Shown here one piece after another: positions 48,401-51,400 of a DNA stretch of 64,000 nucleotides. Source of the stretch: Eledone cirrhosa. Taxonomy: Eukaryota. The stretch is from positions 237,336,001 to 237,400,000 of the forward strand of contig OZ024742.1 in assembly GCA_964016885.1 (NCBI GenBank). The letters run 5' to 3'. The translations under genes and the position numbers were made by a program. A model generated the notes under the pieces. It was given only the letters and a program-made list of their open reading frames with translations. It ran no database searches and was not told the origin of the DNA. The number at the start of each line of letters is the position of its first letter. The stretch's first letter is position 1.

Positions 48401-51400
48401 TTCCTAACACCAACCACGTTTACAGTGTGGACTGGGAGGTTTTTACCGTGTTACCTACTCGGCCACATTACAGCGTGGACTGTGTATTTTTTTAGTCGTG
48501 ACACCTACACGACCTCATTTATTTCGGACTGGATGCTGTGGTACCAATATAAATTTAGATTGAAAGGGGTGGTGTGGATGGGGTGGTGTGGATGGGGGGG
48601 GGGGGGGGGGTATTTTTGTTAAGAGGTGCCTACTGACTGTAGGTTTCGCTTTGTACTTAGGCAAGGCGGGTCTTCTGTATTACTGTGTAGCGCCAAAGAT
48701 CTCGGTCCAGTGACATTGTCTTGGAGAGGTGTAAGTGTGTGAGGTCGGAATTTATCAAGTCATTCCAGGTTTTTCTGGGTCTGCCTACTCCGTGGCTTCT
48801 CATGGAAGCTGAAGCTGCAGTCAACCAGTTGAATTATTTGAGGTAGTCACAAAACATTCAATGATCCAAGAAATGAATTAATTCTTCCATCAAAATGAAC
48901 ACGAAGGAAACACCATGAATAATATATAGACCAGGTGTATGCAGCTATAATATATAACAACAACAAATACCAAGAGGGAAAAAAATTTCTCACCTGGCCC
49001 GTCACAGTTTCTGATGCAACTTGTGTTGTACATTCACAAGTCGCAAGTGTATCTTCATCAGCATTCATTCAGTTTATACCCAACTTCAATTTGACCACTA
49101 AGATACTGTCAGGCACTGTATTACAGTAGTAGTCCAGCACTGTAGTATCATAAGCGGTAGACTACTTGGCTACATTGAAGCAGAAATTTTTGGTGCGAAC
49201 AAACCGAAAAGATATTCATTCAACCTCAAATTAAGCTTTCAAACTAGTTTTCATAAAAAAATTAATTATTTACAAGGGGAATAATATTGCAGTATCAGTA
49301 GAGGGTCGGACATGCTTTCCAGCATAGTTACCTCCCTTGCCGTTCTGAGTTCAAATCCCGCCAAGGTTAACTTTGCCTTTCATCCTTGTGGGGTCGATAA
49401 AATAAAGTACCAGTAATGTACTGGGTAATTGCTGGCCTTGTACCAAAAGTAGAAACAATTATTTCAAGTATCATCAAAACTGAAGCTGCAATAAGGCAAC
49501 ACGAGTCGAAATATATGACCTCAAATATTTCAACTGGTGTTGCCTTACTGCAGCTTCAGTTGGTCTCAGTATCGGTAAAGGGTCAGACGACATGCTTTGC
49601 AGCATGGAGTTATGGCCCTTTACAGTCTGAGTTCAAATGCTGTCGAGGTTAACTTTGCCTTTCATCCTTACGGGGTCGATAAAATAAAGCACCAGTAATG
49701 CACTGGGATAATTGCTGGCCTTGTGCCAAAAGTAGAAACAGTTATTATACATATACATCATAATAGACTACCAAATCGCATTTGGAAAGATATACATGAA
49801 GTGAGTGCTTGAACCTAATTGCAACATCATTCACTGACTTGAGTATTACATACACAACCCTAGTTAGTCAACATCTTATAATGAAAGAATATGTACAGAC
49901 ACATATGTATATACAGGGTGCCTCCGAAAATACATACATACTTTGATTACCTGTACAGACAATATTTATTAGAATGCTGTTGAAGTGTGTGTATACATAT
50001 TTTGGGGACAACCTGTGTCAGCCACCTCATTGTTTCCCTCACCTGACCCTCTAGCAGTCCTTTTCTCACTTACACTCGCTGGGATCAGACGGGTTTTTTC
50101 ATTCGTCCACACACTTTAGAACTTACGTTCAACACCGTTGTGGACTTGGATTTTCTTTCTTGAAGTTGCTCGCACATTCTCCGCTTTGTTGTTTTTCTCT
50201 TTTGTTCCCTTTTCTTTTCTATTTTCCTTCCCTCTCTCCTCGGTTTTCCCAATAACTTACCTAGTTATTGAACACTCTGGGGGTAGATATATTGTCTTTA
50301 AAGCGTTGAAATATGCGAGACCCCCAGTAGACAACTGATGAGGAAAACTCCCTGCCCGCTGTTTTTGCTTTCTTCTTAATTTTAAGCCTATCTTAACTAG
50401 CCTACCTTAACTACACAGCCTTCCTATTTCCTATTCTCCATTTATGTTATATATGTATATATTTAATATAGAAATGGCTTCTACAGGACTAGAACTGTTT
50501 CATTCAAAGGAAATCATCAGTAAAGCCCTAATAATTTCCTTTGAATGAAATAGTTCTAGTGCTGTAGAAGCCATTTCTATATTAAATATTTATACTCTGC
50601 TATGTATTGAGTACCTTACCTACTATGGTTACCCCTGATTGAACCCGGGATACACGCACACACATATATATATAGACAATATGCCTCCACACCCCCACCG
50701 CAAGGTGGTCGTGGAGGTGCCACGGCAAAAAAACACCCAGCCCACACTGTAAAGTGGACGTGTAGGCGCCACGAAAAAGCACCCAGCACTCACTGTAAAT
50801 GAGGTTGGTGTTAGGAAGGGCATCCAGCTGTAGAAACCAAACCAGATCAGTTCCTGCATGAGCAAGGCATGGTCAGCCGACCAGACACTGCCCACAACAG
50901 GACAACCCGTCTAACCCATGCTAGCATGGAAGAACGGACATAAAACGGTGATGATGATATATATACTGTAAATCGGACGTGACATGGCAAAAAGCACACA
51001 CTGTAAATGTGGTTGGCATTAGGAAGGGCATTCAGCCATAGAAGACCAGCCAGAAACACCCCTATTTGAGCGAGACACGGTCACCTGACACAACTTGCCT
51101 TAAAATAGGACCTGTCTAACCCATGCTAGTGTGGAAGATGGACGTTAATCGATGACGATGATGATATATATATATATACATATGTGTGTGTGCGTGCGTG
51201 AGTCACCGTAAGCATATCAATATCGACATCATCATCATCATCATCATCATCATCTTATATATATTTTCCATGTTTGCAAGATTTAGACAGGTTGCCATGT
51301 TCTGAGACTAGATAGGTCAGATGACTGTGTCTAGCTTATATGTCCCATTCTGACATAGTTTATATGGCTGAACGCCCTGCCTAATGGCAACCACTTCTCG

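Follow-up and report, generated by a model that had tools for sequence, protein, structure and literature searches.

Is the hammerhead-like motif near position 50,291 of this 64,000-nucleotide stretch of Eledone cirrhosa DNA (the whole of which we call the window) a ribozyme, and if so, what kind of element carries it? Read directly from the plus strand, the cleavage site (A50291) comes first, then GAAA, and then CUGAUGA. In Eckert's terms, S is AUA (with H17 at 50291), G is GAAA (at 50308), and C is CUGAUGA (at 50335). This order is SGC, which is not that of hammerhead types I, II, or III (CGS, GSC, and SCG). The original prediction described a reversed-order motif with these boxes, and a check of the sequence found the motif at that place with all of the described parts. 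The prediction also proposed a comparison with shuffled sequence. A descriptor for the site-GAAA-CUGAnGA order, run at two stringencies, found three motifs in the window (50291 on the plus strand and 20412 and 56769 on the minus strand) and none in each of 100 dinucleotide shuffles. Rfam reported no family at any of the three window motifs.

The motif lies within a non-coding, 5'-truncated copy of a repeat that we call family A (50010-50448 on the plus strand, with approximate ends). The full unit is about 555 nt and its 3' end is at a TA-rich run. From 5' to 3' on the plus strand, the motif begins with one strand of stem II, supplied from upstream (50271-50276; one mismatch in the window copy, at 50274), which was identified from covariation in the family alignments. 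The next part, 50277-50284, pairs with 50320-50327 to form a helix that we call the bridge, seen in the family copies and the alignment and predicted to tie together the outer ends of stems I and II. The 5' strand of stem III follows at 50286-50291 (U16.1 is 50290 and H17 is A50291; from the sequence, the descriptor, and the family copies), and then the 5' strand of stem I at 50292-50297, which the descriptor and the family copies both support and which pairs with 50329-50334 (6 of 6 pairs are Watson-Crick). The segment 50298-50307 consists of a 4-nt linker and the 3' strand of stem II (50302-50307), again from covariation. The GAAA box (50308-50311) and the 3' strand of stem III span 50308-50315, with a mismatch at 50315 in the window copy; then come the 3' strand of the bridge (50320-50327) and, at 50329-50341, the 3' strand of stem I with the CUGAUGA box (50335-50341), which has no stem II strand after it. 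The start of the motif had been put at 50277, and it needs to be moved 6 nt further 5', to the stem II strand, which had been missed. Cutting is predicted 3' of 50291. Among 18 family A motifs with the commonest core, H17 is C in 10 and A in 8.

The boxes and stem I are intact in the window copy, which is 78-87% similar to its best relatives. It has two private changes relative to its family, A for G at 50274 and G for C at 50315, and these break one pair each, in stems II and III respectively. Because of these two mismatches, the window copy may be dead, and it may cut poorly or not at all. We think it probable that this stretch is a decayed hammerhead of scrambled order, that intact copies cut themselves after H17, and that the repeat is a retrozyme-like parasite of Penelope-like elements whose motif came from the Naiad lineage.

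The three motifs in the window belong to three separate repeat families, each of them non-coding, which cannot be aligned with each other outside of the motif. The four-helix motif of family B is at 20362-20436 on the minus strand (H17 is 20412), inside an element at about 20259-21115 with a 55-nt terminal direct repeat, and that of family C is at 56723-56792 on the minus strand (H17 is 56769); both were found with the descriptor and in family copies. The original prediction matched our motif to 20352-20420. The two do have the same order and different, perfect 6-bp stems I, with the amendment that the partner is on the minus strand. The core boxes are retained, as claimed, while the downstream ggaaa(a)ctcc is common to families A and B only. 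This 3' tail was overrated: it decays into poly-C in many copies of family A and is absent from families C and D (family D is described below). Similarly, the shared end (aactacacagc or aaccacacagc) is real and is just 12 nt long (E = 4). We also considered a conserved hairpin in the tail and rejected it, as it folds in 6 of 13 distinct tails. By eye, we noticed that in families A, B, and D the motif is followed, 40-70 nt downstream, by the short word AGYAAC and then CAG (in the window, around 50400-50420 and 20285-20300; also in loci L225 and L227). This word could be a 3' recognition signal.

A first look at the 3.0-Gb genome gave 1,980 candidates for family A, 1,312 for B, and 562 for C. 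The loci that we fetched included additional relatives of A, namely family D and variants. A pattern that covers families A and D and fixes no base pairs has 14,062 exact matches in the genome, and the reversed control has none; among the matches listed, most are family D. The exact cores of families A (33 letters) and B (31 letters) have 120 and 208 genome matches, respectively. Family D (L224-L253, L047, and L130) has units of 500-640 nt, often in tandem, with many compensatory variants.

The original prediction argued from two motifs that selection maintains the structure, and proposed looking for covariation in copies from across the genome. This held up well beyond two examples: we found covariation in all four helices. 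Among copies found by DNA similarity (29 per family, leaving out the window copy), the whole core is intact in 20 of 29 for family A, 27 of 29 for B, and 18 of 29 for C. Stems I and III and the bridge are paired in 90-99% of alignment cells overall (for A, B, and C, stem I: 167/171, 170/174, and 191/203; stem III: 135/140, 201/203, and 130/144; bridge: 210/226, 159/174, and 157/174). In family C, the first pair of stem I switches between subfamilies, from C-G (14 of 29) to A-U (11 of 29). We also aligned 33 motifs of the A/D type (28 of them distinct), comprising the window copy, 30 matches to the pattern that fixes no pairing, and 2 added variants. In this alignment, 13 of the 18 pairs in stems I and III and the bridge have two-sided changes, including 6 of 6 pairs in the bridge, and 92% of cells are paired, as compared to 30-51% if the strands are slid. 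With stem II included, 16 of 24 pairs have two-sided changes and 88.5% of cells are paired, as compared to 30-44% if slid.

Could the pairing have been inherited from one founder, without selection? Copies within a family are related, and kinship among them inflates shuffle tests. The stronger point is therefore that families A, B, and C, which cannot be aligned outside the motif, all keep the four helices with different letters, and so do Naiad elements from other phyla. We consider a founder effect to be largely refuted and very improbable.

Stem II is the unusual part of the fold. It pairs a strand 5' of the cleavage site, 50271-50276, with 50302-50307, and does not use the bases after CUGAUGA. 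The upstream partner lies just 5' of the bridge, and its letters differ among the families: AACGCU/AGCGUU in A, GGCGC/GCGCC in B, ACGA/UCGU in C, and both UCGC/GCGA and AUUGCA/UGCAAU in D. Each of the six pairs in family A is present in 21-27 of 28 copies, each of the five in B in 26-29 of 29, and each of the four in C in 24-29 of 29; in all three families, pairing drops sharply at the next position. For stem II alone in the A/D alignment, 77% of cells are paired, as compared to 19-49% if slid, and 3 of 6 pairs have two-sided changes, a count that is no better than in shuffles (337 of 500). Taking one copy per family, the best upstream partner was at the expected place in 6 of 9, and we read the other three as two mutated copies and one tie.

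Alternatively, this might be an ordinary type SGC hammerhead, with a stem II of 1-2 bp formed by the bases after CUGAnGA and with the upstream pairing as an inactive or secondary state. At 10.1-11.1, the pairing is G-U or absent in many copies. In 25 of 28 sequences, position 11.1 is able to pair with the base that follows the box. In family B the box is followed by U-GG, which agrees with Eckert's pattern (PMC10085705), and the spider element Naiad_Smim has a contiguous 3-bp stem II. Nevertheless, the bases after the box form at most 1-2 pairs with those before GAAA, no register there gives more than this or shows covariation, and the upstream strand gives 4-6 pairs whose letters differ by family. 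We think that the ordinary form is unlikely. Overall, the CUGAnGA, GAAA, and UH boxes are all present and stems I to III show covariation, with stem II obtained via the upstream strand only.

With stem II supplied from upstream, the strand order is II5' - bridge5' - III5'/UH/I5' - linker - II3'/GAAA/III3' - bridge3' - I3'/CUGAnGA, which would correspond to Eckert's SGC ring opened just after A9. This implies that block C, which Eckert assumed could not be split (PMC10085705), is split. We found no experimental test of a break after A9 in the literature. The bridge would take the place of the contact between loops I and II. Where the upstream strand leaves U11.1 unpaired, its partner may be the base immediately 3' of the box, which is G or A.

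Does the fold cut? Type SGC and CSG RNAs cleave in vitro (PMC10085705), and we propose that in intact copies the four helices fold and the hammerhead core would cut after H17. Plain folding predicts stem III with the bridge, or alternative hairpins, and not the pseudoknotted core (z from -0.8 to -2.2). A fold that no longer cuts, and has been retained as a signal at which the reverse transcriptase (RT) of a helper element binds or primes, could account for the constant spacing between the motif and the 3' end (81-94 nt in family B, at 28 of 30 loci) and for copies that run through the site, with ends that do not pile up there. Against this, every family retains the catalytic boxes and an H17 other than G, and the box varies solely as it does in active hammerheads (U3-A8, a described natural variant; PMC4209133). 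Furthermore, core positions vary less than the 5' flanks (2.8 versus 5.0%, 0.6 versus 1.6%, and 3.8 versus 9.9%). A non-cutting signal seems to us quite doubtful, slightly more so than the ordinary SGC form.

Another possibility is that cutting takes place only in trans or between the units of a dimer: within a tandem transcript, each unit would lend its CUGAnGA strand to the core of the unit that follows. With linkers of 3-6 nt, the bridge would have to fold back in order to reach stem III, and Eckert raised the same puzzle for type SGC (PMC10085705). The hammerheads of Penelope-like elements and of amphibians act as dimers (PMC4209133, PMC7229834), and tandem copies are common in our families. 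On the other hand, a single unit has all of the strands and has no need of a palindromic loop, and the SGC RNAs tested by Eckert, whose strands are connected in a similar way, cut as single constructs (PMC10085705). This possibility seems unlikely, about as much so as the ordinary SGC form.

We return to cutting within single units, and to how it might serve the repeat. The units are retrozyme-like: short, non-coding, dispersed or in tandem, with one ribozyme motif each. Penelope-like elements leave characteristic insertion marks, namely (TA)n targets and partial tandem and inverted copies (PMC8557442). Both kinds of mark are seen here, but they are not specific, as another Penelope-like family in this genome also ends at TA. 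Within 300 nt 3' of the motif, (TA)4 occurs at 27, 28, and 25 of 30 loci for families A, B, and C, as compared to a background of 21%. In family A, 13 of 30 loci have terminal direct repeats, with a period of 509-569 nt, and 8 of 30 have inverted copies. Of 98 motifs, 26 have an upstream repeat, and these repeats start at -200 to +105, none of them at +1. Six of these starts are at +5 to +25, some of them at inversion joints, without a pile-up at the cut site, and in 12 of the 26 the start has a second site downstream of it. The insertions all stop at a fixed 3' end, well past the site. The fixed 3' end and the starts 5' of a second site imply that the template was circular, or a multimer that had not been cut, rather than a linear monomer released by cutting. 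A retrozyme cycle is consistent with this, although cutting is not thereby demonstrated. In such a cycle, the cutting of tandem transcripts would release RNA of unit length, which would be circularized, and the circular RNA would then be copied into (TA)n by a Penelope-like RT/endonuclease.

Where did the motif come from? According to the portions of Craig and colleagues (2021; PMC8557442) that deal with hammerheads, Naiads have no canonical hammerhead and carry just the labels "HHR_core" and "HHR_half_core"; there are eight half cores, with a GAAA 35-50 nt away on one side or the other. We read by eye the 3' ends of 18 of the 54 Naiad consensus sequences, chosen partly for their "HHR_half_core" labels (the names Hcon, Sdum, Tgra, and Chem-4 are assigned from the order of File S5), and saw hammerheads of SGC or CSG order in 11 of the 18. 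Nine have the SGC order (Obim, Ovul, Esco, Dst-1, Dst-2, Dst-3, Smim, Sdum with a U3-A8 box, and Amil), and two nematode Naiads (Hcon and Hpol) have complete CSG-order hammerheads, in which stem II is a full 5 bp. (Circular permutation turns the SGC order into CSG, and vice versa.) In the 3' ends of the other seven (Omin, Adux, Skow-1, Tgra, Pmar, Mcor, and Chem-4), we saw no hammerhead of either order; Tgra, Pmar, and Skow-1 share another conserved motif in the 3' UTR (File S5). Also by eye, the upstream stem II is a perfect 6 bp, with other letters, in each of Naiad_Ovul, Naiad_Obim, and Naiad_Amil and has 4 of 5 pairs in Naiad_Esco, whose stem I and linker closely resemble those of family A. 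Because Naiad_Smim has its contiguous stem II, and 300-400 nt separate S from G in the ostracod Naiads, Naiads solve stem II in several ways. The motif is likely to be the ribozyme thought to be missing from Naiads, and the repeat likely took it from the Naiad lineage.

This genome has 91 matches to Naiads, which are old, broken remnants and which, by eye, resemble the published octopus Naiad proteins. Ten of 20 remnants align over a stretch of the 3' UTR, 3' of the RT, that has the SGC layout and a U3-A8 box, with the same order as in the repeat families and different letters. A relaxed scan 3' of the 20 remnants gave 9 matches in the sense direction, of which 2 were convincing and the rest were low-complexity. 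The Naiad_Ovul motif has no match in this genome, and the CSG order had none in 1.14 Mb of fetched DNA. A piece of Naiad RT was absent from all 120 motif loci searched, and the elements in the window have no ORF with an N-terminal GIY-YIG and a C-terminal RT. At 50 GIY-YIG loci, there was no element-linked SGC motif, and the 2 nearby matches were insertions of family D.

Families B and D look young, while the Naiads here look dead. Because the Naiads are old and broken while the copies of family B are 94-96% similar, the present helper may belong to a different family of Penelope-like elements. One young Penelope-like family, at G000:C1:48766717 and 112 other places, is 95-98% identical, has open frames of over 1,000 amino acids and a canonical-order core before (TA)n, and is a candidate helper. 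We also considered whether the RT that adjoins one motif copy (L003) was a Naiad, and rejected this because the endonuclease lies at its C-terminus and the core carried by its family is in canonical order.

The window has several other features. On the plus strand, 29364-33492 is an ordinary array of non-LTR retrozymes: a 317-bp unit occurs 13 times with 99% similarity between copies, and every copy has a type I hammerhead with a U3-A8 box (Rfam HH9, 31 bits, below the cut-off). The family A copy is directly followed, at 50477-50575, by an inverted pair of a hammerhead-like end in canonical order (with CUGAUGA near 50520 on the minus strand), and the same motif recurs in many of the fetched loci. 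A LINE with endonuclease-like and RT frames and a PHD finger lies at 40195-43533 on the minus strand. Finally, broken frames at 16612-18554 on the plus strand resemble, by eye, a Penelope-like RT and endonuclease, with no Pfam match.

The interest lies in the class that the window copy exposes rather than in the copy itself. We lean towards the view, though less firmly than for the repeat itself, that animals have a large unrecognized class of active hammerheads with the mirror cyclic order: SGC or CSG in the Naiads of cephalopods, corals, spiders, ostracods, and nematodes, with CUGAnGA loose from stem II in cephalopods and corals. These hammerheads would drive Naiad-type retrozymes with over 14,000 copies here. 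Our searches of the open-access literature turned up no description of SGC or CSG hammerheads from Naiads or from the genome of an animal. The relevant parts of PMC13725137, PMC13159263, and PMC6962438 added nothing further, and metagenomes gave 5 matches to the pattern, none with the stems. If our reading is correct, these would be the first hammerheads permuted in a non-circular way with covariation in the genome of a known kind of organism; their strand order would fall outside Eckert's six-type scheme; and they would explain the apparent lack in Naiads of a ribozyme that is present in other Penelope-like elements. A ribozyme in Naiads would mean that ribozyme-dependent processing could be general among Penelope-like elements. 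Because standard descriptors and Rfam miss these motifs, counts of hammerheads in animals would be too low, and because the published SGC pattern requires stem II after the box (PMC10085705), it would miss motifs with a split block.

How do these elements compare to known systems? Like the non-LTR retrozymes (PMC7229834; Li et al. 2026, 10.64898/2026.07.22.740005), they are short non-coding units, in tandem or dispersed, with one hammerhead each, and are thought to depend on Penelope-like elements. Those retrozymes have type I hammerheads and units of 170-400 nt, whereas ours have a non-circular permutation and units of roughly 470-810 nt. Like the minimal type I hammerheads of canonical Penelope-like elements (PMC4209133), our motifs are near the 3' end of the element and include U3-A8 variants; those hammerheads have the canonical order, a weak stem III, and a dependence on dimers, while ours have a stable stem III of 5-7 bp. 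The repeats share with Naiads (PMC8557442) the (TA)n targets, the tandem and inverted copies, and, by eye, a scrambled motif in the 3' UTR, but the elements in the window encode no protein. The closest match is to type SGC, or HRIMA-1 and its variants (Eckert 2023, PMC10085705), which has the same cyclic order of site, GAAA, and CUGAnGA, a short linker between stems I and II, and a helix that joins them. According to the portions of that paper on SGC and CSG, type SGC is known from metatranscriptomes only, with no examples with covariation in the genomes of known organisms, and the CSG set is two sequences; here there are thousands of repeats in an animal genome. In Eckert's SGC, stem II follows CUGAnGA, and block C is intact (G plus 2-6 bp, with C before GAAA), which is not so here, as it is sequence upstream of the cleavage site that supplies stem II and half of the bridge. 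Our verdict is that the motif works like type SGC, yet is not a member of that type as defined.
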